64,000 bases of DNA. It comes from Tyzzerella sp. UBA1042. Its GTDB lineage: Bacteria; Bacillota; Clostridia; Lachnospirales; Anaerotignaceae. The notes beneath the pieces are model-generated. The model had not been told where the DNA came from and searched no databases. It saw nothing but the letters and a program-made list of their open reading frames with translations. The stretch covers positions 3,002 through 67,001 of the forward strand of contig DCDZ01000028.1 in NCBI GenBank assembly GCA_002316675.1, written 5' to 3'. A program made the translations under genes and the position numbers. This document shows, one piece after another, positions 13,065-41,718 of the stretch. How positions within the stretch are numbered: the stretch's first letter is position 1; each line of letters begins with the position of its first letter.

Positions 13065-13124
13065 TTAATCCTTTAAAGCGTTGTTGAGCTTTTTTAAAGC
13101 TTTTTTTTCTATGCGTGATACGTA
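13065..13124 (-). CDS. sigK: sigK 3' segment: end of the region 4.2 recognition helix plus C-terminal tail
   Basis: The minus strand reads (Y)VSRIEKKALKKLNNALKD-stop. This is exactly the sequence missing after ...GISRSY in the sigK 5' segment at 47677-48318. It has no start codon of its own. A CAGGGC-AAA-GCCCTG hairpin (13050-13064) follows the stop. Confidence 0.8.
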   Translation of the reverse strand, partial: YVSRIEKKALKKLNNALKD

Positions 13125-13342
13125 CTCTCCTGAGAGAGAAGGGGTAAATGTATCAGCCTTACTTATTTTGCTGGCAAAATATGTGAAAGGAATGAATTTT
13201 TTGTAAAATTTTGATAAATCCTGTGCAATTGTATGCTTTTCTTATTGTTTTATGTAATTAAGTTTGTTACAATATTTAAGATGAAAATGTAATCTGCGGT
13301 TCGGACAACATAGAGCTTATAAGTGTGTATTAGAAAAAGAGA

Positions 13343-16300
13343 GTGAATGTGATGAGAGAAAAAATATCATTAAAAAATCACAAGGGATATACATTGGTTG
13401 AAGTGCTGATTGCAGTGGCGATTATCATTATTATTAGTATCATTGCCATACCCGCAGTAGGCAGTTTGAAAAAAAGTCTGACATTAACGAAATATGATGA
13501 TACTGCACGGCAGATTTATCTGGTTTCTCAAAATAAGCTTACAACAATGAAATCCACAGGAACGTTGGGTGTTTTTTTAGATGCAGTAGAAAAAGACTAT
13601 GCAGCCCAGAAGCTTACGCAAGAGCCACAGGATTATAACGATGAAAAAACGGATTGGAAAGATCTATACTATTTTACCGATTCCGATACTGTTTTTGTAA
13701 ATTATATCATGGGTACCAGTTCTGTTTTAACGGCTTCCATGGAAAACGAAGGGCATTTTTTGGTTGAGTTGAACCCGAAAACAGGAGATGTTTACGGTGT
13801 CTTTTATGCGGAGAAAGCGTTTACATATGATGACATACAAGAACTTTTTTCCAGAGCGAAAAAAGCCCGCAAAACAAAAATGCTTGGCTATTATGGAGGT
13901 ATTTCGGAATTTTCCGCAGGGGAGGAACTGCCGACAGAGTTTACACCCACGGCAGGTATTGTGAATAAAGAGGATTTATATCTCAATATTGAATTAACGG
14001 GTATGCGACCGTTTATTAAAACACAAAATAAGCTTTTGGTATCCGTGACCGTAACGGACGAAAGCTATGATGCTGCAAAGCCCACAGAACATACCTTTAC
14101 CAAAGAATTAAAAGGCGGAACAGATTTTACAATTCAAAAGGCAAATTGCCAAATTCCGGTGCTTTTGGATAGTATCGAAGGCGGCAAGAACAGTTTTAGC
14201 AACATTACCGAGGGTAAGTTGACAGCAGGGGATAATATTCATATAACGGTATCTGTCACCTATGATGATGGAGAGGATATTCATATTACCGGCAATACCA
14301 TTGCCTCCACAAATAGTCTTTTTGCGAAAAAAGAGGTGGAAGGCGATTTAGAGGTGCAGTATGTACGTCATTTGAGGAATTTGGATGAGTCTGTTTATGA
14401 AGTAAATAAAAGTGAGGAAAGTAAGCCGATTACTGTTACCCAGACAAAACCCATTGATTATGATTATACCCAATGGGAAGATGACGCAAGAATTCCCGGA
14501 AATACAGGTGACAATCCTTATTCCGCTGACTTTGCACCTCTGAAAAACCTAAAATTATTTGACGGCATGACGTTTGATGGAAATAACAATGAAATTTTGA
14601 ACTTTAAGATATCCGGAGGCCATTATACCGGTTTATTTTCTAAATTAATAAATTCCCATATGAAAAACATGAAATTAGTCAATTTCAGTGTTACAGGGAA
14701 TTCTTATGTTGGTGCGTTGACCGGTCAGATCACAGGGGGAAGCATTACGAACTGCGGCGTATACCTAACAACGAGAAATGAATTTAATCAGCCGCTTCCG
14801 GATATGCCCGAGCGGGTTCAGCGTTATCAAGTAAAAGGGTCTCCTGAAGATTCTAGTTATGTAGGCGGCATGGTGGGGCAAGCAACCCAGCGTACTGTTA
14901 CCAAAGATTCCTTTGCTGCAATAAATGTTTCCGGTACAGCTTCTTTTATAGGAGGTTTTTGCGGACGATATGATAATGGTTCTATTACAAATTCTTATTC
15001 CTCAGGCGACGTTACCGGAGGACTTTGGTATACAGGCGGCTTTCTGGGAGAACTGAATAATTCTTCCATCAGCCAATGCTATTCTACCTCCGATGTAGTT
15101 TATGTGCTTGGTTCTGCAGGAGGGTTCGTTGGTCGTGCAGTTAACGGAAGTATTTCTGATTCCAATTCCTATGGCCTTGTGAAAAAAAAGGATGGCACTT
15201 CGGTTGTCGGGACCTCCGGAGGATTTGTAGGTGTTACGACCTCGACGATTCGTAATTGCAACTTTCTGAGGCAGCCGAACTACAATGCTGCTTATGAAAT
15301 AAGCCCTGCAGGTGTGAAGGGGCAAGGATTTTCTGGTTTAAAACCAGAAAAAGGTAATTCACCAAGTGATTGCTATCCTTATAAGGATGAATTGGTAGGC
15401 AACAGTATTCCTTTTAAAATGCTGGCGAGAGAGGGCGGGGCAATCATACCCCATTATGGTGATTGGCCGGGAGAGATGAAGCTGCAGACCTCTTTGGTAT
15501 ATTATGAAAAATATGCCACTGCCGATCAGGATGGGAATTATTACGGCTATTATGCCGAAACAAGCTTAACTGATGATGGGAGCGCATATGATTCAGGGAA
15601 AATCAATGGCTGGAGGCTAAATACTTTACGGCAGGAGCCTTGTGTTGAGGATGGGTATGCATTGATGACGATTTACGAACTAGGCGGTTTCCAATATGAG
15701 TTAAATGGGGATTTACCTAATCCAAAGAGAAATTCGGTGAAAGTTACAGATTCAGCAACGCCCACAGCCGAAGAAGCAACAAAAATTATGAATAGGGTTT
15801 CTTTGGTGTTCACCAATATTGAAGAAAGCAATATAAAGTATACCATTTCCAATGCAAGGGTTTATCGTCTGCCGTTTGCTTTGCAGATGACAGATAGAAA
15901 TACTGCGGCAAGGTTTTATGACCGGTTGGAAATCAGCTATGAAGGCAAGGGCAAAAAGACAGAAGAGTATACATTCTTCTATTGCCCTGACTTTGCAAAG
16001 AACGCCATCAATCCGGATATTAGTAGTACTGCGGCGGACACACCGCTGAATCCAACAGGGGATAAAAACCCGATTTCGGTTAGAAGCCCTCGTCATATAA
16101 ATGCTTTGGCGCGTGCGGCTTATTATTGGAACACCACAAAATGGACAGAGAGCACCGATATAAGGTATCATTTTGTGCAGGAAAATGACATTGATTTTGA
16201 ACTTTATACGAAAGAATACTGCGGAAAAAGCTATAATTTAATGGATGCTTCCAGCAAAAACACCTATAGAAACAGACCCATTGGCCGCCCTAATTCTCAG

Positions 16301-17374
16301 GCTTTTACGGATCCCAATGGGGATACCTATACACCCAGTAATTTTAGAAATCGTTATAATGGTCAAGGGTATAAGATTATAGACTATAGATGTATTACCA
16401 CAAAGGCAGATAGTTATCAGTTTACAGGGCTGTTTGGAGAAGTTCAGCAGGCAACCCTAAAAAACATTGTGATGATTGCCTCTGATCCCGAGAATGAGAG
16501 TGGATACGTTATTTCCCAATATAATGATGATAAGCATCCCGGCGTGGGAGCCTTAGTTGGTTTGGTTTATGTGGATATAGGAGGGAAGGATTACGAGGAC
16601 GGAACCCCCGCAACGGTGTCCAATTGTTCCGTGTCTGGCTACGTGGTGAGGTACGAGCCAGCTGGCGATGCAAACCATCCCAGTGCAGTGGGTGGTTTAG
16701 CAGGCTATAACTTCGGGAAAATTGAAAACAGCAGCGCAGTGAATAAGCTGGTAACTGCATCTGAAAAAGCTGGCAGACAGAACCGATATATTGGCGGTTT
16801 GGTTGGTTCTATGAATGGTCAGGGAAGTATCACAAATTGTTATGCAGGTGGTCTGGTTACAGTTGCAGATACTGGAAGACGGTCAACAAAAACAAACTTG
16901 GCAGGTATTTGTGCAGGTTTTGAAAATATCTATGGTGCATTTGATAGCAGTAGCGATAAAAGAAAAATGCTTATTAAAAACGTCTATTCCTATTGTAACC
17001 TGGAAAAAAATGAAAGAAATATGAGGACGTATGCTGTAGTAAATACCGAGGATAAGATAACTTTGTTCAGTAGAAGTGGCTATTATCTCTCCTCCAATGT
17101 GGAGAATATCACATCCTTAGAGGATAGAACTATCTCTCGAGGAATGAGCTTTGATGAATTGCGTGGGCTATCCTTCCAGGCCAGCGGCACTGCTGCGGCC
17201 TCAGGACGTGCCTCCGCAGACAATACCCATCCTTGGTCCAAGGATTTGGAATCCATTGCCTATTCTTACCCTGCAGTGGTAGTTGACCCAAGAAAGAACA
17301 ATACCACCTATGTTCATTATGGCGATTGGTCTTTGGCTAGGGATAGTGCTAGGGAGGAAAGGTTGGTACAGTGA
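13343..17374 (+). CDS. giant modular type IV pilin-like protein with a GLUG-type repeat module (candidate pilus adhesin)
   Basis: The N-terminus ...SLKNHKG|YTLVEVLIAVAIIIIISIIAIP is a prepilin cleavage/methylation motif with Glu at +5. It is followed by about 1300 aa containing about 10 spaced (Y/F)xGG(L/F/M)(V/C/L)G units (YVGALTGQ, YVGGMVGQ, FIGGFCGR, YTGGFLGE, AGGFVGR, SGGFVGV, AVGGLAGY, YIGGLVGS). The start could be GTG 13343 or ATG 13352. Confidence 0.85.
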   Translation: MNVMREKISLKNHKGYTLVEVLIAVAIIIIISIIAIPAVGSLKKSLTLTKYDDTARQIYLVSQNKLTTMKSTGTLGVFLDAVEKDYAAQKLTQEPQDYNDEKTDWKDLYYFTDSDTVFVNYIMGTSSVLTASMENEGHFLVELNPKTGDVYGVFYAEKAFTYDDIQELFSRAKKARKTKMLGYYGGISEFSAGEELPTEFTPTAGIVNKEDLYLNIELTGMRPFIKTQNKLLVSVTVTDESYDAAKPTEHTFTKELKGGTDFTIQKANCQIPVLLDSIEGGKNSFSNITEGKLTAGDNIHITVSVTYDDGEDIHITGNTIASTNSLFAKKEVEGDLEVQYVRHLRNLDESVYEVNKSEESKPITVTQTKPIDYDYTQWEDDARIPGNTGDNPYSADFAPLKNLKLFDGMTFDGNNNEILNFKISGGHYTGLFSKLINSHMKNMKLVNFSVTGNSYVGALTGQITGGSITNCGVYLTTRNEFNQPLPDMPERVQRYQVKGSPEDSSYVGGMVGQATQRTVTKDSFAAINVSGTASFIGGFCGRYDNGSITNSYSSGDVTGGLWYTGGFLGELNNSSISQCYSTSDVVYVLGSAGGFVGRAVNGSISDSNSYGLVKKKDGTSVVGTSGGFVGVTTSTIRNCNFLRQPNYNAAYEISPAGVKGQGFSGLKPEKGNSPSDCYPYKDELVGNSIPFKMLAREGGAIIPHYGDWPGEMKLQTSLVYYEKYATADQDGNYYGYYAETSLTDDGSAYDSGKINGWRLNTLRQEPCVEDGYALMTIYELGGFQYELNGDLPNPKRNSVKVTDSATPTAEEATKIMNRVSLVFTNIEESNIKYTISNARVYRLPFALQMTDRNTAARFYDRLEISYEGKGKKTEEYTFFYCPDFAKNAINPDISSTAADTPLNPTGDKNPISVRSPRHINALARAAYYWNTTKWTESTDIRYHFVQENDIDFELYTKEYCGKSYNLMDASSKNTYRNRPIGRPNSQAFTDPNGDTYTPSNFRNRYNGQGYKIIDYRCITTKADSYQFTGLFGEVQQATLKNIVMIASDPENESGYVISQYNDDKHPGVGALVGLVYVDIGGKDYEDGTPATVSNCSVSGYVVRYEPAGDANHPSAVGGLAGYNFGKIENSSAVNKLVTASEKAGRQNRYIGGLVGSMNGQGSITNCYAGGLVTVADTGRRSTKTNLAGICAGFENIYGAFDSSSDKRKMLIKNVYSYCNLEKNERNMRTYAVVNTEDKITLFSRSGYYLSSNVENITSLEDRTISRGMSFDELRGLSFQASGTAAASGRASADNTHPWSKDLESIAYSYPAVVVDPRKNNTTYVHYGDWSLARDSAREERLVQ

Positions 17375-17580
17375 GACTGTATGAGCAAGAGCGATGGAAT
17401 AATTGGAATTATTATGGAAACGGTGTCCTGTTTGACATTGGGAATACAAGCATTACAGAACTTGAAGCTCGGGGTAATCCGGTAGGAGAATATTCCTACT
17501 ATGAGTATTATGGATATGGCATTGTGTTTGACAGCGCCTTTGCAGAGTATTTATCTGATTGGGAAGCGGAATCTGTGTAG
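17371..17580 (+). CDS. small acidic Tyr/Asn/Gly-rich hypothetical protein, translationally coupled to the giant pilin gene
   Basis: The GTG start overlaps the TGA stop of the upstream gene (GTGA). It is 69 aa with no signal peptide and no recognisable motif. Confidence 0.4.
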   Translation: MRLYEQERWNNWNYYGNGVLFDIGNTSITELEARGNPVGEYSYYEYYGYGIVFDSAFAEYLSDWEAESV

Positions 17581-17832
17581 TCATTTGAATACACATCTGG
17601 ATGGAAAAAAAGAGACTGTACGGAGGCCAGTGTCGTTATCAAATTTAACATCATATACGTTGTCAAATAAAAATGCAAATGGTATAATTGTCAAAGCTTT
17701 TAGGGTTGACAGTGGATATTTAGAAAGCGTTACTGCGCGCAATCAAGAAGATGGTTCAGAGTATAAGTTTGTATGTTGTATATAGCAACAATACGTTCAC
17801 CTTCCAGTCTTAAAGAAACAGAGGTGCCTTTT

Positions 17833-18600
17833 ATGAAAAATATAAACAAAAAACTTAAAAGTGAAAAAGGTGCCTCTATCCTTCTTGCCCTCATGCTTTT
17901 TCTTGTCTGCTTTATGGTGGCCTCCGTTATTTTAAGCTCTGCCACAGCAAATGCAGATAAGCTTCACCAGCGGGAGGATAACCAAAGGGAGTATCTGTCT
18001 GTCAGTTCGGCTGCAACCCTTCTGCGGGATGTTTTGGGTGGAATAGAATATACCGGTTGGGAAAACAATAAGGTGTTTTATTATCAAGATGAGTCGGCAA
18101 TAAATTTGGGAACGCAAGAGGATATACCGGAAAAATGTGAGGCCATGGTGTATACTGAGGAGAAAGAAGCCAGAATGAGGGCAGAGCTGGAAAGAGCAAT
18201 TTATCAAGCATTTTCCTCTCATACGAAATGGTATACGAAAGTACCCGTTGCTGATGTATTGACAAAGGAGTTCGTAATATCCGGAGAGGGTATGGAGGAG
18301 ATTAAGGTTGTATTGTCTTTAGATACAAAAACCTATTATGTGACCTGCGAGCTCACGCAAAACGATAGTTCGGGAACGAACAATGCAATGACAGTGCTAT
18401 TTAAGGCGGCGGTTCACAAGGATGACTCTCCCCAAAGCCGTGAATATACGGATGAAAATTTTACATATTGGGAAGCAGTTCCTAATGCTGATGGGGAAGG
18501 CACCCACTGGGAAAGCAGGCTGTATAGAATTGTGGAATATAAAATTGTGACTAAAATCAGCTATGATGCAGGAACCATCACAAAGGGGGTATACCCTTGA
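17833..18600 (+). CDS. pilin-like minor component lacking Glu5 (PilX/GspK-like role possible)
   Basis: MKNINKKLKSEKG|ASILLALMLFLVCFMVASVIL has a basic leader, a Gly and a hydrophobic helix but no Glu at +5. The gene sits inside the pilin gene cluster. Confidence 0.6.
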   Translation: MKNINKKLKSEKGASILLALMLFLVCFMVASVILSSATANADKLHQREDNQREYLSVSSAATLLRDVLGGIEYTGWENNKVFYYQDESAINLGTQEDIPEKCEAMVYTEEKEARMRAELERAIYQAFSSHTKWYTKVPVADVLTKEFVISGEGMEEIKVVLSLDTKTYYVTCELTQNDSSGTNNAMTVLFKAAVHKDDSPQSREYTDENFTYWEAVPNADGEGTHWESRLYRIVEYKIVTKISYDAGTITKGVYP

Positions 18601-18908
18601 AATTAGAAAAAAAACGTAGAAGCATAAAAGGAGAAACACTGCTGGAAACCTTGGTCGCCATTCTTATTCTTACTATTTCCGCCATGATGCTGGCAGAGAT
18701 GACGGCTTCTTCAGTGAGAATTAACCGCACTGTAGAGAAGATAGACAAAGAATACCGGGAAAATGTGTCTGCAGCTGAAAAAAGGAAATTCTATAAAAAT
18801 GAAACGGTTACAATCAAAACAACTGATAAAGAATATACCTATAAGGTTGAATATTATGGAAAAGCAGATGGGCTAACCTCCTATAAAGCGGAGGAAGGGG
18901 AGATATGA
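18597..18908 (+). CDS. minor (pseudo)pilin
   Basis: MKLEKKRRSIKG|ETLLETLVAILILTISAMML has a prepilin-type leader with Glu at +5. The start overlaps the previous stop. Confidence 0.7.
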   Translation: MKLEKKRRSIKGETLLETLVAILILTISAMMLAEMTASSVRINRTVEKIDKEYRENVSAAEKRKFYKNETVTIKTTDKEYTYKVEYYGKADGLTSYKAEEGEI

Positions 18909-18909
18909 A

Positions 18910-19407
18910 ATGAAGGTGCTTCAAAAAATTGCAAATTGCAAGGGGTTCTCTTTGTTAGAATCTATGGCGGCATTACTCATTATCTCCATTCTAACCGTGG
19001 GAATTACCACCGGGGTAAACGCCGCATCTAAAATTTATCAACAATCCCTTTTTGTTTCCGAGGGAGACATATTGGCGGCTACGGTGGATACGGCACTATC
19101 CGATGTTCTGCGCTTTTCCTCAGAAATTAGTGAGGAAGATGGTGTGGTCAGCTTTACCAACGCAAACTACAGCGTAAAAAAGGGCCATTTGCTGTCGGAA
19201 AGCGGTTGGCTGTATTTAAATTTGCGGGGAGAGGAGGATGCACCTTTGGTTTTATTGCTGAATAATGGGGTTTATTCTTCTATGGAAATTAATTCTTTTC
19301 AACTAAGCTATGCGGAAGGTGTTTTTTCCGGCAGCTATGAAATAAAAAGCAAGAAGGATGATACGCTGGTAAAAAAGTACGCTTTTCATTTCCGCACGCT
19401 AAGCTGA
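18910..19407 (+). CDS. minor (pseudo)pilin
   Basis: MKVLQKIANCKG|FSLLESMAALLIISILTVG has the canonical G|F...E5 prepilin motif. Confidence 0.75.
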   Translation: MKVLQKIANCKGFSLLESMAALLIISILTVGITTGVNAASKIYQQSLFVSEGDILAATVDTALSDVLRFSSEISEEDGVVSFTNANYSVKKGHLLSESGWLYLNLRGEEDAPLVLLLNNGVYSSMEINSFQLSYAEGVFSGSYEIKSKKDDTLVKKYAFHFRTLS

Positions 19408-19444
19408 TTCCGGTCAATGCGCTGACAAGGAGGCGAAAGAGAAA

Positions 19445-21160
19445 ATGAAATTCAAACGACTTGGAGATATGCTGACCTCTACGGGAATGATTACGGAGGA
19501 ACAGCTGAAAGTTGCATTAAATAAACAAAGGGATACGAAAAACCGCTTGGGGAAAGAGTTAATTGAAGAAGGCGTTATTTCTGAGGAGCAATTAATTCAT
19601 ACGCTAAAGCTTCAGCTTGGATTGGATTCCATTGATCTGTCCACGGTCAATATACCCAGTGCGCTTTCTGAAATCATTCCGAAAAAAATGGCCAATAATT
19701 ATGGCCTTGTACCTGTAAAGCAGGAGGGGGACTCTCTGTATGTGGCAATGAGCGACCCCTTGAACTTTGTTGCCCTGGAGGATGTAAAGGCAGTAAGCAA
19801 AAAGCGCATTATACCCTTAATTGCCACGGAGGAATCCATACAAAGAAATATTGGCTCCTTATATGGCAATGAGGGTGCCGCCAGAGCCATTGAAGAAATG
19901 AAGCGAGAGATGAATGATGCCCCTGCGGCCGTTATTTTTGGCGATTCGTTCCTTTCCAATAACATAGATAACGATGAACAGTCTGCCCCAACCATTCGTT
20001 TGGTGAACTCCTTAATTGAACGTGCGGTATCGGAGCGTGCCAGTGATATTCATATTGAGCCTGCGGAAAATGAGGTTCGTGTGAGAATGCGTATTGACGG
20101 CTTGCTTCGTCAGATTATGATTGTGCCGAAGGATTTACAGTCCTCGGTCATTTCCCGCCTTAAAATTATGGGCGGCATGGATATTACAGAACGCAGAATC
20201 CCCCAAGACGGACGCTCTAACGCTAAGGTGAAAAAAGCGGATATCGACTTGCGTATGTCGACCTTGCCCACCATTTACGGAGAAAAACTGGTAATCCGTC
20301 TTTTGGATAAAAACACACAGCTTTTGGATAAAGCGAAAATCGGCTTGACAGGGGAGGATTTGGAGAAATATATGCGGCTGATCAACCAAAAGGGCGGCGG
20401 CGTGGTTTTGATTGCCGGTCCCACAGGCTCCGGTAAATCCTCCACACTGTATACAATGATTCGTGAACTAAATACAGAGCAAAGCAATCTGATTACATTG
20501 GAAGATCCTGTGGAATATAATATTGCCGGCATCAATCAAGTGCAAATTAACGAAAAAACAGGAATGACCTTTAGCGGAGGCCTGCGGGCAATCCTAAGGC
20601 AGGATCCGGATATTATTGCGGTGGGCGAAATCCGTGACGGCGAAACGGCGGAAATTGCCATGCGTGCGGCAATTACGGGGCATTTGGTATTATCTACCAT
20701 CCATACCAATAGCTCCATAGCCACCTTGGACCGCCTTTTGGATATCGGTGTTGAGCCCTATCTTATTTCCAGTGCCCTCAATGGCGTTGTTTCCCAGCGT
20801 CTTGTGCGTAGAATCTGCCCCCATTGCCGTAAGGAATATGAGCCTACCCAAGAGGAGCTGGCCAGCATTGGCCTTTCCCATGAAAACCACGGTTTTTATC
20901 ATGGCGAGGGCTGTCCCATGTGCTTTGGTACGGGATATCGGGGGAGAGTGGCAGTTTTTGAAATTTTGGTTATGGATAGAAAAGTAAAGAATGCCATATC
21001 AAGCGGTGCAAAAAGAGAAGAATTGGCGGAAATTATACACAGCCATAAAGGCTTTGTTGCCCTAGCAGATAATTGTCGCAGGCTTGTTTTGGAAGGTGTA
21101 ACCACTGTTGAGGAGGCAAAAAGAATTACGAATTCAGAGGATTATGAATATGAAAGTTAA
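19445..21160 (+). CDS. pilB: type IV pilus assembly ATPase PilB (GspE family)
   Basis: N-terminal T2SSE_N-like repeat (ITEEQLKVAL...), Walker A GPTGSGKSST, Asp and His boxes, and a CPHC...CPMC tetracysteine motif. Confidence 0.92.
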   Translation: MKFKRLGDMLTSTGMITEEQLKVALNKQRDTKNRLGKELIEEGVISEEQLIHTLKLQLGLDSIDLSTVNIPSALSEIIPKKMANNYGLVPVKQEGDSLYVAMSDPLNFVALEDVKAVSKKRIIPLIATEESIQRNIGSLYGNEGAARAIEEMKREMNDAPAAVIFGDSFLSNNIDNDEQSAPTIRLVNSLIERAVSERASDIHIEPAENEVRVRMRIDGLLRQIMIVPKDLQSSVISRLKIMGGMDITERRIPQDGRSNAKVKKADIDLRMSTLPTIYGEKLVIRLLDKNTQLLDKAKIGLTGEDLEKYMRLINQKGGGVVLIAGPTGSGKSSTLYTMIRELNTEQSNLITLEDPVEYNIAGINQVQINEKTGMTFSGGLRAILRQDPDIIAVGEIRDGETAEIAMRAAITGHLVLSTIHTNSSIATLDRLLDIGVEPYLISSALNGVVSQRLVRRICPHCRKEYEPTQEELASIGLSHENHGFYHGEGCPMCFGTGYRGRVAVFEILVMDRKVKNAISSGAKREELAEIIHSHKGFVALADNCRRLVLEGVTTVEEAKRITNSEDYEYES

Positions 21161-22196
21161 TGAACTGATTGTATATGCAAATAATAAAAAGGCCTCGGAT
21201 ATTCACTTGATTTTCGGGCTGCCGCCCAAATGCCGTGTGGCAGGCCGCTTGGAATCTATGGCTGATTTTATTCTAAATGATGATGACTGTGACAATTACG
21301 CTATGGAATTAGCTAGATATAGATATGACGATTTTTTGGAAATCGGCGAAATGGACTTAGCAAGAACCATTGAAGGGGTGCGTGTGCGTATCAATTTATT
21401 CAGACAGCAGGATCATACCTCTGTAGTAATCCGCCTTTTGAATGATAAAATCCCCATGCTGGAAAGCTTGGGCTTGCCCGACGGCGTAGAAAGATTAACC
21501 GAGTTAAAAAGAGGCATTGTAATTGTAACAGGGCAGACGGGTTCGGGTAAATCCACCACCCTTGCCTCCCTCATTGACCGCATCAATCACACAAGGGATT
21601 GTCATGTCATTACCCTGGAAGACCCCATAGAATATATCTATGAGCCGGATTTATCTATTTTTAACCAAAGGGAAATCGGGCGGGATACAAAATCCTATGA
21701 ATCCGGGCTTCGTTCTGTTTTGAGAGAAGACCCCGATGTTATCCTAATCGGGGAAATGCGGGATACCATTACCATGGAAACTGCCCTAAAGGCGGCGGAA
21801 ACAGGGCATCTTGTGCTGACTACATTGCATACCGGCTCTGCCTCGGAGGTGGTGGATCGAATTGTGGATTCCTTCCCCGAAGCAAGGCAGCAGCAAATAC
21901 GTTTACAGCTGTCTCTGACGTTAATGGCGGTTTTGGCACAACAGCTTTTGCCGAAAAAAGACGGAACAGGGCGCATTGCCGCCTGCGAATTTATGCCCAT
22001 CAATGCCGCCATCAGAAATCTGATTCGTGAGGGGAAATCCCCCCAGATTGATAACGTGATTTCTACCTCGGCGGAGAAAGGCGCCGTTACCATGGATAAT
22101 GCAATCATTAAGCTGTACCGGGATAAAAAAATCTCTAGCAGAACGGCGTTGTTTGCGGCAAAAAACTTAGAGTTTGTGAAACGAAACATCACTTAA
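21144..22196 (+). CDS. pilT: type IV pilus retraction ATPase PilT
   Basis: ASDIHL, Walker A GQTGSGKSTT, IGEMRD, and GHLVLTTLHT. It is short and lacks the GspE N-domain. The start overlaps the pilB end. Confidence 0.9.
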   Translation: MNMKVNELIVYANNKKASDIHLIFGLPPKCRVAGRLESMADFILNDDDCDNYAMELARYRYDDFLEIGEMDLARTIEGVRVRINLFRQQDHTSVVIRLLNDKIPMLESLGLPDGVERLTELKRGIVIVTGQTGSGKSTTLASLIDRINHTRDCHVITLEDPIEYIYEPDLSIFNQREIGRDTKSYESGLRSVLREDPDVILIGEMRDTITMETALKAAETGHLVLTTLHTGSASEVVDRIVDSFPEARQQQIRLQLSLTLMAVLAQQLLPKKDGTGRIAACEFMPINAAIRNLIREGKSPQIDNVISTSAEKGAVTMDNAIIKLYRDKKISSRTALFAAKNLEFVKRNIT

Positions 22197-22230
22197 ACGG
22201 CCTTTGCCGTAAAGGAAAGGGGAGATATCC

Positions 22231-23427
22231 TTGCTTACCTATAAATATAAGGCGGTTTCAAAAAAAGGCGCAGAAATTGAAGGTTATATAGAGGCTTTTA
22301 ATGAGTATGAGGCAATCAATAAAATTAAAGAAAGCTGTGATATTGTAACAAGCATTTCCGAGGTTCGTATGGGGAAGGGCATTGAGGTTACAGGTAAAAT
22401 CAATGAAAAAGCTCTGGCCATTCTTTGCTCTCAGCTCTCCATCATTGTGGGGGCGGGGCTTCCGGTGCTTCGTGCCGTGGAAATGATTGCCGCCCAAACG
22501 GAGAATAAAAAATTGAAAACAATCATGGAGGGTGTCTCCAAGGATGTGGCATCGGGGGGAAGCCTTGCTAAAAGCTTTGAGACAAAAGGCCCGGGCTTGC
22601 CCATCACCTTTGTGGAAACCATTCGCTCCGGCGAGGAATCGGGTACTTTGGAGCATTCCTTCAACCGCTTGCATGATTATTATGATAAAACGGCAAAAAT
22701 GAAGGGTAAAGTAAAAAATGCTATGGTTTATCCCACCTTTACCATGATTGTCGCCATTGCAGTTATTGTCATTATCATGGTGAAGGCGGTGCCTGTTTTT
22801 ACCAGCAGCTTTGGAGAGATGGGGGTAGAGCTTCCCCTCCCCACAAGAATGCTGATTGGTATATCCAATTTCTTTGTGGAATATTGGCTTGCCTTGGTGG
22901 CGGTAATCGCCTTTGCCCTTGTGATATATAAGCTGTATGAGAAGCGAAAGGAAAACCGCTTGAAGCTAGAGCGCTTGAAGCTTCGCATCCCTTTGTTTGG
23001 AAAGCTTGCAGCCCTCAAGCAGGCCTCCCAATTTGCGGCAACCATGTCTACCCTTTTGGGAGCGGGCTTGCCTGTGGTAGAGGCAGTTTCTATCACGGGA
23101 AAGGTCATTGATAACGAATATATCGGCAATCAAGTGCTGGAAACGGTGTCTATGCTGGAGGAAGGCAAACGCCTTGGCGATAGCTTACATACCCGAACGG
23201 AGCTGCCCCAGCTGTTGGTGGAAATGACGGCGGTGGGGGAGGAAACTGGTTCCCTTGAGACAACCTTGGATACCATTGGGGACTTTTACGACAATGAAAT
23301 TGATACAGCCACCTCAAGGATGGTAACCCTTCTGGAGCCTATCATCATTTGTGTGCTGGCGGTCATCGTTTTGTTTATCCTCATTTCCGTTTATGCCCCT
23401 ATGTTCTCTCTCTATGGAGGGATATAA
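22231..23427 (+). CDS. pilC: type IV pilus platform protein PilC (GspF family)
   Basis: Two GspF-like repeats (GLPVLRAVEM... / GLPVVEAVSI...) and three TM segments. TTG start. Confidence 0.9.
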   Translation: MLTYKYKAVSKKGAEIEGYIEAFNEYEAINKIKESCDIVTSISEVRMGKGIEVTGKINEKALAILCSQLSIIVGAGLPVLRAVEMIAAQTENKKLKTIMEGVSKDVASGGSLAKSFETKGPGLPITFVETIRSGEESGTLEHSFNRLHDYYDKTAKMKGKVKNAMVYPTFTMIVAIAVIVIIMVKAVPVFTSSFGEMGVELPLPTRMLIGISNFFVEYWLALVAVIAFALVIYKLYEKRKENRLKLERLKLRIPLFGKLAALKQASQFAATMSTLLGAGLPVVEAVSITGKVIDNEYIGNQVLETVSMLEEGKRLGDSLHTRTELPQLLVEMTAVGEETGSLETTLDTIGDFYDNEIDTATSRMVTLLEPIIICVLAVIVLFILISVYAPMFSLYGGI

Positions 23428-23601
23428 GGCTTTCCTAAACTTACCAGTGCAAACCGGCATCCTTTGCATTGCCAAAAGTAGGCACTGCACGTAAACTATA
23501 AAAGCACCATTGCCCTCTAAGGGGTATTAAGTTGGTATTTTTTGTGAGAACCCGCTCACAAATGATATATTTAATGTTGATGAATTAAGGAGGTACATAA
23601 T

Positions 23602-23997
23602 ATGAAGAGTATGTTGAAAAGAAAAAATAAAAAAGGCTTTACGCTGATGGAGATGCTGATTGTTGTGGGTATTATTGCGATTTTGGTAGCAATTGCCATC
23701 CCGACGTTCGGCGGCGCACAGAAGAAGGCAAAATATGCTGCAGACATAGCGAATGTTAGGGCATGGTATGCGGAACAGCTGGTGAATGATATGACAGAGG
23801 GAGATGGCTTCACTGAAAAATCATTTTCGGAAGAGAATTCAGATACTGATGAACTCAAGCTCCAGATGAAGGGTGCTACTGCAGAGGCAACTGGCACGAC
23901 TGCTGAAACATTCAAGGTGGTTTATGATCCAAATGGCGACGGAACAGAGGATGAGGGAGACTTCCCATCGGTTACATTCCCTTCGGATGCTGACTAA
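23602..23997 (+). CDS. pilA: major type IV pilin
   Basis: MKSMLKRKNKKG|FTLMEMLIVVGIIAILVAIAIPTF has the canonical motif. The protein is small (131 aa), has a strong AAGGAGG RBS, and is followed by a strong terminator. Confidence 0.9.
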   Translation: MKSMLKRKNKKGFTLMEMLIVVGIIAILVAIAIPTFGGAQKKAKYAADIANVRAWYAEQLVNDMTEGDGFTEKSFSEENSDTDELKLQMKGATAEATGTTAETFKVVYDPNGDGTEDEGDFPSVTFPSDAD

Positions 23998-24080
23998 TGA
24001 TCTGATTAAAGCAGAAAAGCAGCCTATTTGCATCTAAAGGCAGCGGGTGATTTTACCCTCTAACCCCAATCCGATTACCA

Positions 24081-24120
24081 CGATAGAACTGGGGCGGGTT
24101 GCAGTTCTATCGTCGTTTTT
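24081..24120 (+). terminator. rho-independent terminator after pilA
   Basis: cgatagaactg (24081-24091) pairs perfectly with cagttctatcg (24102-24112), followed by tcgttttt. Confidence 0.6.
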
Positions 24121-24141
24121 GGTTGAAGGAGAGAAGCGATT

Positions 24142-24951
24142 ATGCTTTTGTTTGAACAATTCAATTTTATTTATGTATACATATTCGTCCTAGCCTTTAT
24201 GATTGGGGCAGTTATGGGCAGTTTCATCAACTGCGTGGCGTGGCGCATATCCCATGGGGAGGATTTCATCCATGGCAGAAGTCATTGCACCACTTGCGGA
24301 CACACCCTCACACCCTTGGAACTGATGCCTATTGTATCTTTTCTGATACAGAAGGGGCGAAGCCGTTGTTGTAATGAAAAAATTTCTTTGCGCTATCCTG
24401 CTACGGAGCTTTTGACGGCTCTGGTGTTTGTGGCTTTGGTTTTTAAATTTGGCTTCAGCTTAGACACCCTGCAATTTATGGTGTTATCCCTGCTTTTGCT
24501 GGCGGTTTCCTTGGTGGATTTGGAAACAGGGCTGATTCCCGATGGTTTTATTTTAGCTGGAATTCTAAATTTTGTTTTGTTTACTATCCTAAAGGGTGGT
24601 ATGATTTTTACAGGGCTTCTGCACGGTGCCCTTGGCGGTTTCTCCATCTCCGTACCCATTTTACTCCTTTCCCTTTTGATGGATAAGGTGTTGCAAAAAG
24701 AGAGCATGGGCGGCGGAGACATTAAGCTGTATTTTATGACAGGGCTTTATTTCAGTATCAAGGCCAATGTTTTGTTGGTTTTGCTGTCTTGTGTTTTTGG
24801 GATTGCCTTTACCCTTATTTTTCAAAGCATTCGGGTGGGGGAGAAGGAAAATCCACTGGCGTTTCCCTTTGGGCCGTCCATCGCCATGGCGGCAATGGTT
24901 TCTGTGTTTTTGGCAGAGCCGATTTTGCAATTTTATATGAGTTTATTTTAA
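24142..24951 (+). CDS. pilD: prepilin peptidase (A24 family) PilD
   Basis: Polytopic membrane protein with CxxC...CxxC near the N-terminus and a GGGDIKL active-site motif. Confidence 0.9.
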   Translation: MLLFEQFNFIYVYIFVLAFMIGAVMGSFINCVAWRISHGEDFIHGRSHCTTCGHTLTPLELMPIVSFLIQKGRSRCCNEKISLRYPATELLTALVFVALVFKFGFSLDTLQFMVLSLLLLAVSLVDLETGLIPDGFILAGILNFVLFTILKGGMIFTGLLHGALGGFSISVPILLLSLLMDKVLQKESMGGGDIKLYFMTGLYFSIKANVLLVLLSCVFGIAFTLIFQSIRVGEKENPLAFPFGPSIAMAAMVSVFLAEPILQFYMSLF

Positions 24952-25066
24952 ATACATCAATTTGAAAATGACCGGTCTGTTGGCCGGATGAGTATAAAGT
25001 ATCTTTTGAAAGGGTACATAATTTTGAAGAAATGACTTAGAGAGCTGGATATAAGGGAGGTTTCAT

Positions 25067-26062
25067 ATGTCCAAGGGATATACGGCAATACAAATTGGGG
25101 AGAGTACCATTAAGATGGTTCAAGTTAGTGATGGCAAGGCAGTAAAAACTGTTCTGGAAGCTACCCCGGACAATTTGGTGCGGGACGGGCATATCTTGTC
25201 CTTTGAAGCACTGGCGGAAATTTTGAAAAGCATGGCAAGGGATAATCAAATGCGAAACCGCAATGCGGTGGTGGTTTTGCCCTTGGAAAATTGTTATTTG
25301 CGGCGCACCAGTATGCCCTATATGACGGTAGACCAATTAAAATTGAACCTGCCCTATGAATTCAGAGATTATATTCATGCCGACCGCGAGGATTATTTTT
25401 ATGACTATGCCGTTGTAGGGCAGGAAACCGACGAAGCGGGTGAAATGAAATCACTGGATTTGCTCATTGCGGCGGTAAAAAATGAATTGATCGAAAAATA
25501 TATGAAGATTTTGACCTTTGCCGGCTTTAAGCTGAAAATCGCATTGCCCGATGCCTGTGCCTTTCGCAATATCATCCGGCAGTATGAGGAAAATAATGAA
25601 GAACACCCGGCGGCGTATTGCATTGTAGACTTGGGACATTCCTCCATTCGGGTACATTTATATAACGGGAGCGTTTACGAAACCACCAGAGTCATTGAAT
25701 ATGGCGGCGTCACCCTAGATTCTCTGATTGCAGAGGAGATGGATGTGGATGTACATATTGCTTCTTCCTATAAAGTGAAAAACTATAATCAGGTGCAGGA
25801 ATTAGAGGCCTGCAAAGAAATTTATGATAAAATGATTGTGGAGCTTTTCCGCTCCATCAATTTTTACAATTATAATAACCCCGACAGCGAATTGAAGGAT
25901 ATTTATTTTTGTGGCGGCTTGGCAAAGATCACACCCTTTATGGATATGGTGCGTTCCGCCTTGGAGGTGCGATGCCATACCATTGGCGAACTGATGGAGG
26001 AAGCAGAACAGGATGATACTTTGGAGTTGATTTGTGCCGCAATTGGCGCAACGCTGCAGTAG
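25067..26062 (+). CDS. pilM: type IV pilus assembly protein PilM (actin-like ATPase fold)
   Basis: 331 aa. Position and size match PilM, and it has IVDLGHSSIRV and FCGGLAKI motifs typical of the FtsA/PilM fold. Confidence 0.8.
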   Translation: MSKGYTAIQIGESTIKMVQVSDGKAVKTVLEATPDNLVRDGHILSFEALAEILKSMARDNQMRNRNAVVVLPLENCYLRRTSMPYMTVDQLKLNLPYEFRDYIHADREDYFYDYAVVGQETDEAGEMKSLDLLIAAVKNELIEKYMKILTFAGFKLKIALPDACAFRNIIRQYEENNEEHPAAYCIVDLGHSSIRVHLYNGSVYETTRVIEYGGVTLDSLIAEEMDVDVHIASSYKVKNYNQVQELEACKEIYDKMIVELFRSINFYNYNNPDSELKDIYFCGGLAKITPFMDMVRSALEVRCHTIGELMEEAEQDDTLELICAAIGATLQ

Positions 26063-26065
26063 GGG

Positions 26066-26677
26066 GTGAGAGCTTTGCAGTTAAATAAAAAAATTGGTGT
26101 GAGATATCCCACAAAAACGAATATGAACCTTGCCGTGCGGGAGACAAAGGGTGTTGATAGAAGGTCGGTGCTTCCGATCGGCATTTTTCTGGCAATCGCA
26201 GTGCTGGCTTTTGCAAAATTGGCTGTTTTTGATTTGTTCCATGCCGTGGATTTGGCGGAGGAAAACGTGCGTCTGACCCAGCAGCAGCTTGACCAAATGA
26301 AAGAGGCAAACTCCATTTATGATGAAGTTTTGAAGGAATATAACGAAAGTGTTTCTTTGAGTATTTCTTCACCGGTGATTGCAACGCTTTCCGAAAGGCT
26401 TGAAATTGTGAATCAGTATTTGATTTCCAATGCCAAGGTGGAATCCTTTAATGTTTTGGATGATGTGATTACGGCGCAAATTTCCGGCGTTACCTTAAAT
26501 CAAGTTTCCGGCATTTATACAGCCTTGATGGCCAATGAATTTGTTTCCAATGTACAGTTTTATACGGCAAGTACGGAGAATGAAACCGGCTCTCTGACAA
26601 CTGCAACAATGACCATTATCCTTACGGCCAATGAAGCTGTAGCCGAGGAACAGGCGGAAGGAGGCGAGGCACAATGA
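26066..26677 (+). CDS. PilN-like bitopic pilus alignment protein
   Basis: Short cytoplasmic N-terminus, one TM segment ([21 protein letters not shown]), then a coiled coil. It lies immediately after pilM. Assigned by architecture and position only. Confidence 0.55.
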
Positions 26678-27231
26678 TCTCCAAGTCTTTTACAAAACGG
26701 GAAAAGGTTTTGCTTGTCATTTTAATTGTTATTTTGCTTTCTGCGGTGTATTATTTTGCCGTGGCACGCCCTTCCATGAACCGTATTTCCGTAGCAGGCG
26801 ACCAAACAATGGCATTGCAGGATGAAATTACACTGGAAATGGCAAAGCTTACGAAAATAAAAGAGATGCAGGCAAAAATTGAAGAGGCAGCCTTAACGGA
26901 GCGCTTTAAAACCAGTATTCCCGATTACGATAATTTGGAAAATGTGATGAAGCAGTTGGATACAGTTTTAAGCAGCTCCACAGACTATAAGCTTTCGTTT
27001 TCACCAACCACGGAGGAAAGCGGCTTGCTTTATCGGCCCATTGATGTGGAGTTTGACTGTGCAAATTATGGGACTGCCCGAAGCATTATAGATAAAATTT
27101 ATGCCAGTCCGTTTAAAAGCATGATTGATACCCTCAGTGTGGATAATACGGAATATAAGGAAACGGATATTACCACTTCTCCCGTAAAGGTTACCATGAC
27201 GGTAATTTTTATCGAAAAGAAGACAAGCTAG
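26674..27231 (+). CDS. PilO-like bitopic pilus alignment protein
   Basis: One TM segment ([19 protein letters not shown]) plus a coiled coil. The start overlaps the previous stop. Assigned by architecture and position only. Confidence 0.5.
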
Positions 27232-27268
27232 GTTGATAAATACTATAAAAGAGATGTTTTGTATTTTC

Positions 27269-27294
27269 GCAGGCGAGATTCGCCTGCTTTTTTT
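27269..27294 (+). terminator. rho-independent terminator ending the pilus operon
   Basis: gcaggcga-gat-tcgcctgc is a perfect 8-bp stem followed by a T7 run. Confidence 0.6.
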
Positions 27295-27456
27295 ATACGC
27301 ATTTGAACAGAACTGACGGTATTGCAGTGTCTGAAATAGGCATGAGAAGGGTGAAACCCCTTTCAATACACAGTTTTTAAGGAGTATTAGGTTGCCGTAA
27401 GGGAAGGTTTTGAAAAAAAAGAAAGAATTCTGCAAAATTTTCATTTAGACAGCATA

Positions 27457-27487
27457 TTGACATTCCAGTGATTGTATGGGCTATAAC
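27457..27487 (+). promoter_or_regulatory. candidate promoter with 19-nt spacer upstream of the acyl-CoA dehydrogenase operon
   Basis: TTGACA (27457-27462), a 19-nt spacer, then TATAAC (27482-27487). It shares ATTGACATTCC...GCTATAA with the promoter at 35315-35345. Confidence 0.45.
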
Positions 27488-27596
27488 TAAGATATGCCTA
27501 ATTAAAACCTTCTTGAGGTGACCTTTTGGTGAAAAGGCATATACGCCTAATAAAGCACAATGTAAGTGTTGCTATTTTAAATTTAAGGGAGAGAGG

Positions 27597-28751
27597 ATGA
27601 AAAGAATGGATTTTTCATTAACGAGAGAACAAGAAATGTTAAAAAAACTTGCTCGCCAATTCGCCGAAGCAGAATTGGAGCCCGTTGCAGAAGAAGTTGA
27701 TCGAGAGCATATTTTCCCGGCTGAAAACTTTAAAAAGATGGCAGCCATTGGTTTGACAGGAATCGGCGTTCCCAAAGAGTATGGCGGTTCCTGCGGAGGT
27801 ACATTGGAAAAAGTCATTGCAGTTTCCGAATTTGCGAAAAAATGTATGGCCTCCGCATCTATTTTATCAATTCATTTGATTGCTCCCCAAGCAATCTACA
27901 AATATGGCACCAGAGAGCAAAAGGAAAAATATCTTCCTCGTTTGACCAAAGGCGGAGAATTGGGTGCCTTTGCTTTAACGGAACCCAATGCAGGTTCTGA
28001 TGCTGCCGGCGTGAAAACAACAGCCATTTTTGATCCAAATACCAATGAATATGTTTTAAACGGAACAAAATGCTTTATTTCCGGCGGAAGCAGAGCAGGT
28101 GTTTTGGTCGTTTTTGTGTTGACTGCGCCGAAAAAAGGCTTGAAAGGAATGTCTGCGTTAATTGTGGAAAAAGGAACCCCCGGTTTCACCATTGGTAAAA
28201 TTGAATCCAAAATGGGTATTGCCGGTTCGGAAACAGCGGAGCTTATTTTTGAGGACTGTCGTGTTCCTGCGGAGAACCTTTTGGGAAAGGAAGGCAAAGG
28301 CTTTAAAATTGCTATGGAAGCCTTGGACGGTGCCAGAATCGGCGTAGGTGCACAGTCAATCGGCATTGCGGAAGGCGCCATTGATTTATCTGTAAAATAT
28401 GTTTACGAACGGATTCAATTTGGTAAGCCCATTGCGAATTTACAGGGCATTCAATGGTATATTGCAGATATGGCAACAAAGACCGCAGCAGCAAGGGCGC
28501 TGGTAGAATATGCGGCTTATCTTGAGGATGCAGGCAAGCCTTTTACAATGGAATCCGCCATGTGTAAGCTGAATGCATCAGAAAATGCACGCTTCGTTAC
28601 CAACTTGGCATTACAAATTCATGGCGGCTATGGATATATGAAGGATTATCCTTTGGAGCGGATGTATCGTGATGCAAAGATTACGGAGATTTATGAAGGA
28701 ACCTCGGAAATACATAAGGTTGTAATTGCCAGAGAGGTAATGAAAAGATAA
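27597..28751 (+). CDS. acyl-CoA dehydrogenase (butyryl/propionyl-CoA dehydrogenase type)
   Basis: 384 aa with FALTEPNAGSD, a GFKIAM..LDGARIG layout and a YEGTSEI C-terminal motif. EtfB and EtfA follow directly. Confidence 0.9.
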   Translation: MKRMDFSLTREQEMLKKLARQFAEAELEPVAEEVDREHIFPAENFKKMAAIGLTGIGVPKEYGGSCGGTLEKVIAVSEFAKKCMASASILSIHLIAPQAIYKYGTREQKEKYLPRLTKGGELGAFALTEPNAGSDAAGVKTTAIFDPNTNEYVLNGTKCFISGGSRAGVLVVFVLTAPKKGLKGMSALIVEKGTPGFTIGKIESKMGIAGSETAELIFEDCRVPAENLLGKEGKGFKIAMEALDGARIGVGAQSIGIAEGAIDLSVKYVYERIQFGKPIANLQGIQWYIADMATKTAAARALVEYAAYLEDAGKPFTMESAMCKLNASENARFVTNLALQIHGGYGYMKDYPLERMYRDAKITEIYEGTSEIHKVVIAREVMKR

Positions 28752-28766
28752 GAAGGAGTGTATAGG

Positions 28767-29570: not shown

Positions 29571-29591
29571 CCGAAGGGAGATGGGCGAAGT

Positions 29592-31328: not shown

Positions 31329-31355
31329 GCATTGTATTGACAGGAGAGAAAAATT

Positions 31356-32537: not shown

Positions 32538-32590
32538 TCTTTAACTAGGAAATTTTATTTATAAAATAAAGAAGGGCGAGGTGTAGTTTT

Positions 32591-33049: not shown

Positions 33050-33074
33050 GCGATATATTCTGATAGAAAGGGGA

Positions 33075-33455: not shown

Positions 33456-33459
33456 ACAA

Positions 33460-41717: not shown

Positions 41718-41718
41718 A

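Follow-up and report, generated by a model that had tools for sequence, protein, structure and literature searches.

Putative attachment sites with a TA crossover at the ends of a skin-like element that divides sigK in Anaerotignum

Introduction

What divides the sporulation sigma-factor gene sigK in this Anaerotignum genome, and could its two pieces be rejoined with the precision that a coding sequence demands? In the window, by which we mean the whole 64-kb stretch of DNA analysed here, the minus-strand sigK gene lies in two pieces that are separated by a 34.6-kb element (Table 1). The first-pass annotation had read the two ends as attachment sites, attL and attR, of an element moved by serine recombinases through a very short crossover, and took its excision to restore the gene. 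Comparison with related genomes, whose loci we denote by L numbers, supports this interpretation. It also allowed us to define the half-sites at the element ends, to place the putative crossover dinucleotide, and to weigh how the element might be moved.

Results

The two pieces of sigK join into a full-length gene

Joining position 13124 to position 47680 yields a SigK of 232 amino acids, whose translation passes across the join from ...GISRSY into VSRIEKKALKKLNNALKD and then reaches the stop codon. On the minus strand the joined flanks read ...GGA ATA TCA CGA TCA TAC GTA TCA CGC ATA GAA..., encoding G I S R S Y V S R I E. The reconstituted protein passes the NCBIfam SigK model NF004471 with 290.9 bits (cut-off 252) and scores far higher against this model than against that for SigE; Pfam recognizes Sigma70_r2 and r4 in the 5' fragment. 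The break falls within codon Tyr214, at nt 640-641 of 699, in region 4.2 of the gene. The insert thus divides sigK and an exact join gives full-length SigK, as in a skin-type element. The gene has spoIIAA-spoIIAB-sigF as neighbours, and a -10 box of mother-cell type, CATACAAT, lies upstream of it.

Genomes scanned with the reconstituted SigK assign the window to Anaerotignum. In sister lineages (L001, L011, Chakrabartyella piscis and several gut Anaerotignum species) sigK is uninterrupted and flanked by the same MarR and spoIIAA genes. Where the gene is divided, both halves have kept their reading frame: the 5' part is in frame across at least 10 species, with 81-89% amino-acid identity and dN/dS of 0.04-0.12, and the 3' tail of 18 codons plus stop is in frame in all four genomes with a recovered far junction (the window, L022, L025 and L026).

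Table 1. Coordinates of the features discussed in the text, in window positions
Feature	Position	Strand	Description	Basis
sigK 3' fragment	13065..13122	-	third base of Tyr214 codon, V215-D232, stop codon	
B' half-site	13098-13122		first 25 nt of sigK 3' fragment	
Putative TA crossover dinucleotide, left junction	13123..13124		attL in window terms	symmetry centre of reconstructed attP
Intervening element	13125..47679		34,555 bp counting one TA	Pfam annotation of contents
Recombinase-distal P-type half-site	13125..13148	+	CTCTCCTGAGAGAGAAGGGGTAAA	2 mismatches to family consensus
Giant GLUG pilin-like gene and complete type IV pilus cluster	13343-27231			Pfam
Acyl-CoA dehydrogenase, ETF, CoA-transferase operon	27597-32537			Pfam
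MerR regulator	34228-35205	-		Pfam
Reductive pyrimidine catabolism operon	35723-42972			Pfam
Recombination module	43091-47630		DUF6870 and three serine recombinases	Pfam
Promoter-like motif	43091..43120	+	GAATAGGACGAGAGCATTTTTTATATAAAT, upstream of DUF6870-recombinase operon	near-invariant in 9 species
DUF6870 small acidic protein	43134..43397	+		Pfam PF21757, E = 2.3e-28
Large serine recombinase 1 (rec1)	43436..45052	+	538 aa	Resolvase, Recombinase, Zn-ribbon domains (Pfam)
Serine recombinase 2 (rec2)	45068..46051	+	327 aa	catalytic and recombinase domains only (Pfam)
Large serine recombinase 3 (rec3)	46062..47630	+	522 aa, adjoins attachment site	Pfam
Recombinase-proximal P-type half-site	47654..47677	-	CTCTCCTGTGATTTTAGGGCGAAA	1 mismatch to family consensus
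Putative TA crossover dinucleotide, right junction	47678..47679		attR in window terms	as for 13123-13124
B half-site	47680-47704		last 25 nt of sigK 5' fragment	
sigK 5' fragment	47680..48318	-	pro-sequence to ...GISRS and T-A of Tyr214 codon	ORF and translation

The element ends carry inverted half-sites

Upon re-reading the sequence, we found both junctions as first described: on the plus strand the left one is gcgtgatac-GTA-ctctcctgagag, with GTA at 13122-13124, and the right one is cacaggaga-GTA-tgatcgtgata, with GTA at 47677-47679. A position-by-position comparison likewise bore out that GTA is the sole contiguous identity between the two. The joins made in the first-pass annotation are also correct. 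The element ends form CAGGAGAGTACTCTCCTG, a perfect palindrome of 18 bp, and the flanks form ...TCA TAC GTA TCA... (S Y V S), which includes the palindrome ATACGTAT.

A perfect palindrome with a half-length of at least 9 arises at random joins of two window positions with P ~ 1e-5, and only one palindrome of the same length occurs elsewhere in the 64 kb. The symmetry extends outward: in 27-nt arms around the element-end join 19 of 27 positions match (P <= 5e-6), and the 18-bp palindrome is the core of an imperfect inverted repeat of ~50 bp, the reconstructed attP, arranged around a central dinucleotide. By contrast, the 8-bp attB palindrome ATACGTAT does not exceed chance level and is absent from the other species compared, which read TCC TAC GTT TCA, TCT TAT GTT TCC or TCT TAT GTA TCG at its position. 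We rejected this dyad symmetry as a functional feature, since it is conserved in no other species. No convincing dyad symmetry is present in attB, and the outer (zinc-ribbon) motif of the A118 model, sought 5 bp inward in the B and B' arms, was matched at best at 5-6/10 positions. The 2-bp offset between the symmetry centres of the two joins, to which attention had been drawn earlier, is real. Because ATACGTAT is specific to the window and results from this strain's codon choice, the offset carries no information.

Each element end carries a half-site of the form TA followed by CTCTCCTG-N6-TAGGGCTAAA, in which an inner and an outer conserved block lie within 24-25 bp. This half-site recurs in 23 distinct arms, including those of distant metagenomic Clostridia, from which we derived the full consensus, TA followed by CTCTCCTGnnAnnnTAGGGCTAAA. 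When up to 3 mismatches are allowed, the consensus has 2 matches in the 64 kb (0.03 expected), namely the two element ends, in inverted orientation. The outer motifs of the window, TAGGGCGAAA and AAGGGGTAAA, depart from the family consensus. L002-L010 and L035 retain the proximal half-site in the corresponding location.

Junctions of related genomes place the predicted crossover at TA

The first-pass annotation left the crossover at either GT or TA. To be religated, the partner sites of a serine recombinase require identical 2-nt overhangs. In nine further Anaerotignum genomes (A. neopropionicum DSM 3847, A. propionicum DFI.7.94, the complete MB30-C6 chromosome and six MAGs) the recombinase-side junction is cut after the same Tyr codon, TAC, which is followed directly by TCTyCTGwTATTATAGGGCTAAAC. 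Far junctions were reached via MarR homologues in L022, L025 and L026, and in each of them an inverted copy of the half-site stands directly before TAY-GTA-TCx. The attP reconstructed from L010 and L026, which belong to the same MAG, has the arms TTTAGCCCTAATGTAACAGGTGAGT and ACTCTCCTGATATTATAGGGCTAAA. It is an imperfect inverted repeat of 50 bp, centred between T and A, whose outer 10 bp are perfect.

The most informative pair is L022 and L035, which are opposite ends of a single ENA contig; it belongs to a different species, with ~80-85% nucleotide identity to the window. In sigK sense, its first junction reads ...cacgatct TA C GCTCCTGTAATTATAGGGCTAAAT (TA C GCTCCTG..) and its second ...TTTATCCCTTCTGACGCAGGAGCG TA T gtatcgcgc (in short form, ..CAGGAGCG TA T gta..), so that the identity between them is TA only. 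As in the window, the attP core of this genome, CAGGAGCGTACGCTCCTG, is perfectly palindromic over 18 bp. Compared with the core of the window, it has changed on both arms, with A to C on one mirrored by T to G on the other, as expected of compensatory change.

Identity between partner sites is thus confined to the crossover or its immediate surroundings: 3 bp in the window, where it is TAC in sigK sense, G-TA in metagenome hosts, and TA in L022/L035. No dinucleotide other than TA is shared by all junction sets. Because the L022/L035 junctions share only TA and the overhangs must match, the predicted crossover is TA (13123-13124 / 47678-47679) rather than GT or GTA, with the TA-only overlap coming from one genome pair. 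Of the two options first put forward, TA therefore stands, whereas GT fails on the L022/L035 junctions and on the symmetry centre of attP. Because TA opens a Tyr codon that is invariant, synonymous change cannot make the target drift.

A scan of metagenomes with an attL-type pattern returned 25 hits, 24 of which are junctions of this type, comprising a P-arm, TA and a sigK 3' end; we rejected the remaining one, L040, as a false positive because it is an intact sigma gene. Nearly all of the 24 read TTTTTTAGCCCTAACTTGACAGGAGAG-TA-T-gtgtc... and continue into sigK 3' ends from other Clostridia of higher GC content. In scans of IMG/VR, both the attP core and the half-site were absent.

Three tandem serine recombinases and DUF6870 adjoin one end

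[quoted passage not shown] The motifs R-x-S and D-x-SRFGR can be read from the translations of all three. Among proteins of solved structure, TnpX and SPbeta SprA are closest to them. For rec3, which combines Resolvase and Recombinase domains with a Cys-rich C-terminal part, the closest is the TnpX catalytic domain (E = 1.6e-24). Rec2 aligns only with SprA residues 68-296 and is without the zinc-ribbon and coiled-coil part; this short form is also found in L004, L006 and L008, with dN/dS of 0.11-0.17. NCBIfam gave only sub-threshold matches, to XisF and Ccr models.

The three genes group by their position in the triplet: in L002-L008, L035, L054 and L058, the best match of each recombinase is the gene that occupies the corresponding position. 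In L063 this holds for rec1 only; rec1 has positional orthologues in all related loci. All nine further Anaerotignum genomes cut at the same codon contain the rec3-rec2-rec1-DUF6870 module, in which the recombinases overall are 42-59% identical and the rec3 orthologues 42-49%.

DUF6870 is always encoded directly upstream of the recombinase triplet, with dN/dS of 0.05-0.21, and the DUF6870-triplet module is also present in an Oscillospiraceae mobilisable element with a relaxase. The AlphaFold model of DUF6870, a confident one (pLDDT 85.8), has no match at E <= 0.001 in a Foldseek search against the PDB, and the literature makes no mention of the family. On these two grounds we rejected its assignment as a known directionality factor. 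Rather, its gene position makes it a candidate accessory or directionality factor.

A conserved motif precedes the recombinase operon

Upstream of DUF6870, a motif of the form ATAGGAC[AG]AG-N4-TTTTnTATATAAAT stands out from an intergenic region that is otherwise unalignable across species. It contains a box, TAGGACGAG, that resembles the SpoIIID consensus of B. subtilis, TAGGACAAGC (PMC11180830); within the window, TAGGACRAG occurs once, in this motif. At the same place the distant element L058 has cATAGGACAATcagatattttCATATTTATag, that is ATA-N17-CATA..., which is the layout of mother-cell sigma-E promoters in C. difficile (PMC3789822). The -10 element of the putative Anaerotignum promoter, TATATAAAT, begins with T, and the CATA box of sigK has C. 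A generic scan of the recombinase region for sigma-70 promoters and terminators yielded nothing informative. Judged by these motifs, mother-cell-specific expression of the recombinase operon is plausible.

The element is conserved in one Anaerotignum clade

Within 13125-47679, where five of the scanned ORFs had no Pfam match, Pfam identified neither phage genes (capsid, terminase, tail) nor conjugation genes (relaxase, coupling protein, T4SS), and the GC content of the element equals that of its flanks. We rejected a tyrosine integrase as the mover because the window has a single such gene (53581-54488, split), which is not part of the element.

The same codon is occupied by an element with this module in at least nine other Anaerotignum genomes. 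The pyrimidine genes lie beyond the module in 7 of the 9, which are those with long enough fetched DNA, and the same giant pilin gene and pilus cluster lie behind the far junction in L022, L025 and L026. With module, cargo and junctions shared at both ends, the architecture is conserved in the Anaerotignum clade. Cargo and flanks are equally diverged, at 80-85% nucleotide identity between species; the pyrimidine proteins are 87-96% identical, and SigF and SpoIIAB 88-93% among the Anaerotignum genomes. In close pairs, dN/dS is 0.1-0.3 for DUF6870 and the three recombinases, indicating purifying selection. The equal divergence, together with selection on the recombinases and on sigK, argues for an old element that has been vertically inherited in one Anaerotignum clade and whose excision machinery and target gene would still be in use.

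Related elements occur in both orientations

In the window and in all Anaerotignum genomes rec3 adjoins the sigK 5' fragment, and the two genes are convergent. In L054 and L058, by contrast, it is the sigK 3' fragment that the DUF6870-rec1-rec2-rec3 module adjoins, and module and fragment are co-directional; in L054 the rec3 stop codon lies 19 bp from TA. The partial loci L057, L060 and L039 show the same arrangement as L054 and L058. A palindromic central dinucleotide is unusual among characterised serine integrases, in which an asymmetric one gives polarity. TA is self-complementary, so that the asymmetric centre typical of phage integrases, though not strictly defining of them, is lacking here. 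In characterised serine integrases the central dinucleotide fixes the orientation of integration, and the attL x attR complex is asymmetric through the arrangement of the proteins (PMC3783163). Given this published role of the dinucleotide, a palindromic TA core predicts that both orientations should occur in sigK. We infer that the two orientations may be a consequence of the TA core.

Discussion

The arrangement of these features suggests how the gene could be restored. Positions 13098-13148 and 47654-47704 are, with good probability, the attL and attR of a 34,555-bp sigK-intervening, skin-like element that is moved by large serine recombinases. Strand exchange would take place at the central TA, the first two bases of the Tyr214 codon, and recombination between attL and attR would release the element as a circle. 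The chromosomal product, ...TCA TAC GTA TCA..., would be an intact pro-sigma-K gene containing attB, ...GGAATATCACGATCA TA CGTATCACGCATAG..., and the circle would be closed by the junction ...AATCACAGGAGAG TA CTCTCCTGAGAGAG.... The inverted half-sites would thereby endow the excised circle with a pseudo-palindromic attP of ~50 bp, and the inner and outer blocks of each half-site would be the expected contacts of the recombinase domain and the zinc-ribbon domain. The conserved promoter with its SpoIIID box and sigma-E-like features would drive the DUF6870-rec1-rec2-rec3 operon, and the reaction would be timed, by analogy with skin, skinCd, SPbeta and gin, to the terminally differentiating mother cell. 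We infer that excision occurs during sporulation. The five contigs that carry this exact rec3 all show the integrated form, with neither an attP nor an attB product.

That uniformly integrated form would also be expected if the junctions were fossils, the relics of an integration after which the element became fixed and sigK permanently inactive. The cargo, which resembles ordinary chromosomal genes with host-like GC and divergence, and the truncation of rec2 would fit such a history. Yet both sigK halves remain in frame and conserved across at least 10 species, DUF6870 and the three recombinases are intact under purifying selection, and conservation extends to the half-sites, where both arms have changed in a compensatory manner. 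Intact sigK halves, recombinases and half-sites that persist through speciation are not expected of dead DNA, and we consider a fossil very unlikely. It is similarly hard to credit, though for other reasons, that an active phage or conjugative element merely happens to integrate in sigK instead of serving as a domesticated developmental switch. The relaxase-bearing Oscillospiraceae element shows that the DUF6870-triplet module can travel on a mobilisable carrier, and the many hosts and both orientations imply repeated integration. Against this, the 34.6 kb contain no phage or conjugation genes by Pfam (5 ORFs without match), IMG/VR lacks the attP core and half-site, and the cargo is syntenic across the clade and has diverged like the flanking core genes; these observations make a merely mobile element very unlikely as well. 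Least credible of all is a staggered cut of the same sites at GT (13122-13123 / 47677-47678). Taken by itself, the window shares GTA, which makes GT formally possible, and L053-type hosts have a Ser codon with G as its last base, which gives a shared G-TA on that side. In L022/L035, however, the base in question differs (C versus T in sigK sense) and a GT overhang could not be religated; moreover, the dyad axis runs between T and A in all three reconstructed attP sites, and only TA is common to every junction set.

If, then, the element is excised by serine recombinases through TA, how many of the three act on these sites? A single one might, most likely the site-adjoining recombinase or the DUF6870-linked rec1, with the other two acting elsewhere. 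There is precedent in gin, for which GirC plus GirX suffice (PMC5595907); the likeness of the P and P' arms would suit a single homodimer, and outside the sigK family a clear positional orthologue is kept only for rec1, together with DUF6870. On the other hand, the tandem triplet and its positional orthology are kept across distant sigK elements, all three genes, the short rec2 included, are under purifying selection, and the half-site consensus recurs nowhere else in the window. We regard a single acting recombinase as a serious possibility, although the balance leans somewhat against it. A further reading, which we put forward as speculation and think rather unlikely, is that the three paralogues form one heteromeric machine, of which one member would read the two near-identical P-type half-sites and two the unrelated B and B' arms of sigK. 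The palindromic TA would then make integration orientation-neutral, the polarity of excision would be set entirely by the proteins, and DUF6870, as a partner of this machine, would represent a directionality factor of a new class.

Among known systems, the element is best described as a well-supported variant of the skin theme and not as a new kind of system. Skin-type elements in sigK are known from both Bacilli and Clostridia. As in skin (SpoIVCA) and skinCd (CD1231 with the RDF CD1234), sigK is split, a recombinase lies at the edge, and precise excision restores the gene. SpoIIID participates in mother-cell control of both B. subtilis skin and C. difficile skinCd (PMC5025042), and the orientation of skin elements was variable in a survey of 15 (bioRxiv 10.1101/2022.02.25.481979). 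The differences lie in the details of site and content. PhiS63 inserts at nt 427 of sigK, with skinCd and skinCt reported at a similar location (PMC3442830), whereas the insertion lies at nt 640-641 here, a different site by the published positions. skinCd recombines within conserved 12-bp motifs and the skinBs sites are 5-bp repeats (PMC5025042); against these 5-12 bp, the shared core here is 2 bp (TA). Three tandem recombinases replace the single one of skin and skinCd, and a pilus cluster and metabolic operons take the place of their prophage remnants. This cargo is unusual for a skin-type element, and it would leave the mother-cell genome when sigma-K is made.

The gin element of B. cereus, a non-prophage insertion of 28.6 kb in the late mother-cell regulator gerE, contains three serine recombinase genes (PMC5595907). 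Its attachment sites form an imperfect inverted repeat around a central dinucleotide, with a 9-bp shared core and a predicted AA crossover, and its recombinases are dispersed, 22-26% identical to one another, and of them GirC alone is needed (PMC5595907). The element described here shares the non-prophage character, the similar size, the three serine recombinases and the inverted-repeat sites; like gin, it is free of recognizable phage genes, carries several serine recombinases and interrupts a late sporulation regulator. It differs in that the target is sigK instead of gerE, the recombinases are in tandem and 32-39% identical, and the core is TA.

In gene arrangement, domain make-up and short repeats, likened by description, the triplet resembles those of streptococcal ICEs, whose adjacent, co-oriented edge genes, some of them without a Zn-ribbon, are associated with intragenic insertion and repeats of 2-8 bp (PMC4701971). 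The streptococcal carriers are conjugative, with mutT, traG or hsdM as targets (Ambroset et al. 2016; PMC4701971), whereas here the target is sigK and Pfam finds no conjugation module. The attachment sites themselves are closest in layout to those of the phage serine integrases (A118/LI, Bxb1, phiC31, SPbeta SprA) and of clostridial TnpX, with which they share attP size, half-site layout and a 2-bp centre. In these systems attP is a pseudo-palindrome of ~50 bp, composed of 25-bp half-sites with inner and outer motifs around a 2-bp centre of exchange, and the two-block half-site matches the layout given for A118 integrase (PMC3783163). In the characterised integrases the centre is non-palindromic and a single protein acts (plus an RDF for excision), in contrast to the TA centre and three recombinases of the present element.

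These comparisons provide a testable map of a developmental gene rearrangement in propionate-producing Clostridia, for which none has been described before, and define a conserved half-site and a putative TA crossover for serine-recombinase triplet modules, whose sites were previously undissected. A natural palindromic crossover, combined with elements in both orientations, makes it possible to test the rule by which integration polarity depends on the central dinucleotide alone. In annotation practice, split sigK genes are easily mistaken for pseudogenes, and the half-site pattern allows them to be recognized.

A last observation concerns rates of change within the module. The identity of rec3 (49%), set against that of MarR (97%), might point to a recent swap of the recombinase cassette; we rejected this because the genomes concerned are ~80-85% identical throughout. 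The dN of DUF6870 and the recombinases is 3-10x that of PreA or SigF, and the low identity of rec3 is explained by recombinases that evolve 3-10 times faster while remaining under purifying selection.

Intact sigK with an orphan junction copy

In the metagenome contigs L053, L056 and Ga0137308_100116 (the last covered by L055 and L054 together), sigK is intact, and an orphan copy of the junction, consisting of the P-arm (the P-type half-site of the element end), the TA crossover and the last ~63 nt of sigK, lies ~3 kb downstream. The ~3-kb unit between the intact gene and the orphan copy codes for a 562-amino acid protein and a smaller ORF, whose length varies by contig (233 amino acids in L053 versus 162 in L054/L055). 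In L054/L055, a complete element bearing the triplet of tandem recombinase genes (rec1-rec2-rec3) sits in front of the first copy, an insertion that leaves a ~95-bp repeat on both sides of the 3-kb unit. The unit with its orphan copy could be a decayed element by which sigK was restored; alternatively, it could be a mini-element that brings its own sigK 3′ end.

Coordinates of the features discussed
Sequence	Feature	Position
L053	intact sigK and orphan copy	1–6105
Ga0137308_100116	stretch covered by L055 and L054	117953–143423
L063–L066	DUF6870-recombinase module	8001–16258
L016	partial sigK match	about 8500–10363
L016	type IV pilus cluster	12947–18421
L013	type IV pilus cluster	5739–9876
Window	rec2	45068–46051
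Window	glyceraldehyde-3-phosphate dehydrogenase genes	50925–51932; 52397–53416
Window	low-GC block	53500–64000
Window	split tyrosine-integrase gene	53581–53973; 53940–54488
Window	palindrome TTTGACAAATTTGTCAAA	59233–59250

Recombinase modules

Comparison of the window's middle recombinase, rec2, with those of L002, L003, L005, L007 and L035 revealed a short form of 325–347 amino acids, shared by the window and the A. propionicum group, versus 450–550 in other species. The short form cleanly lacks the zinc-ribbon and coiled-coil part, and purifying selection on it persists.

In Oscillospiraceae contigs (L063–L066), DUF6870 precedes a run of three serine recombinases, after which come a 248-amino acid ORF and two further recombinases; only the first recombinase is a clear orthologue of the window's rec1. 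This module adjoins relaxase, MobC and sigma-like genes, and the mobilisable element bearing it is widespread (344 index blocks).

Neighbors of sigK in distant Clostridia

In [Clostridium] ultunense DSM 10521 (L016), the sigK match covers only residues 112–232, with a gene for a different serine recombinase immediately upstream of it; an unrelated skin-type element probably splits this sigK at another point in the gene. In L016 and L013, from two distant Clostridia, sigK is directly adjoined by a type IV pilus cluster, whereas the window's cluster lies within the sigK-intervening element; PilB, PilT and PilC share 43–47% identity with those of the window. This proximity is either coincidence or a hint at the route of cargo acquisition.

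Other features of the window

The tandem glyceraldehyde-3-phosphate dehydrogenase paralogues (~68% nucleotide identity) keep their arrangement in related genomes. At the window's right end, GC content falls to 0.32–0.34 versus about 0.43 elsewhere. This block, which starts with a split tyrosine integrase, followed by AntA and HTH genes in L036 (a contig identical to the window), is probably a second integrated element or prophage remnant unrelated to the sigK-intervening element. It also contains the window's sole other perfect 18-bp palindrome, TTTGACAAATTTGTCAAA, which looks like an operator.
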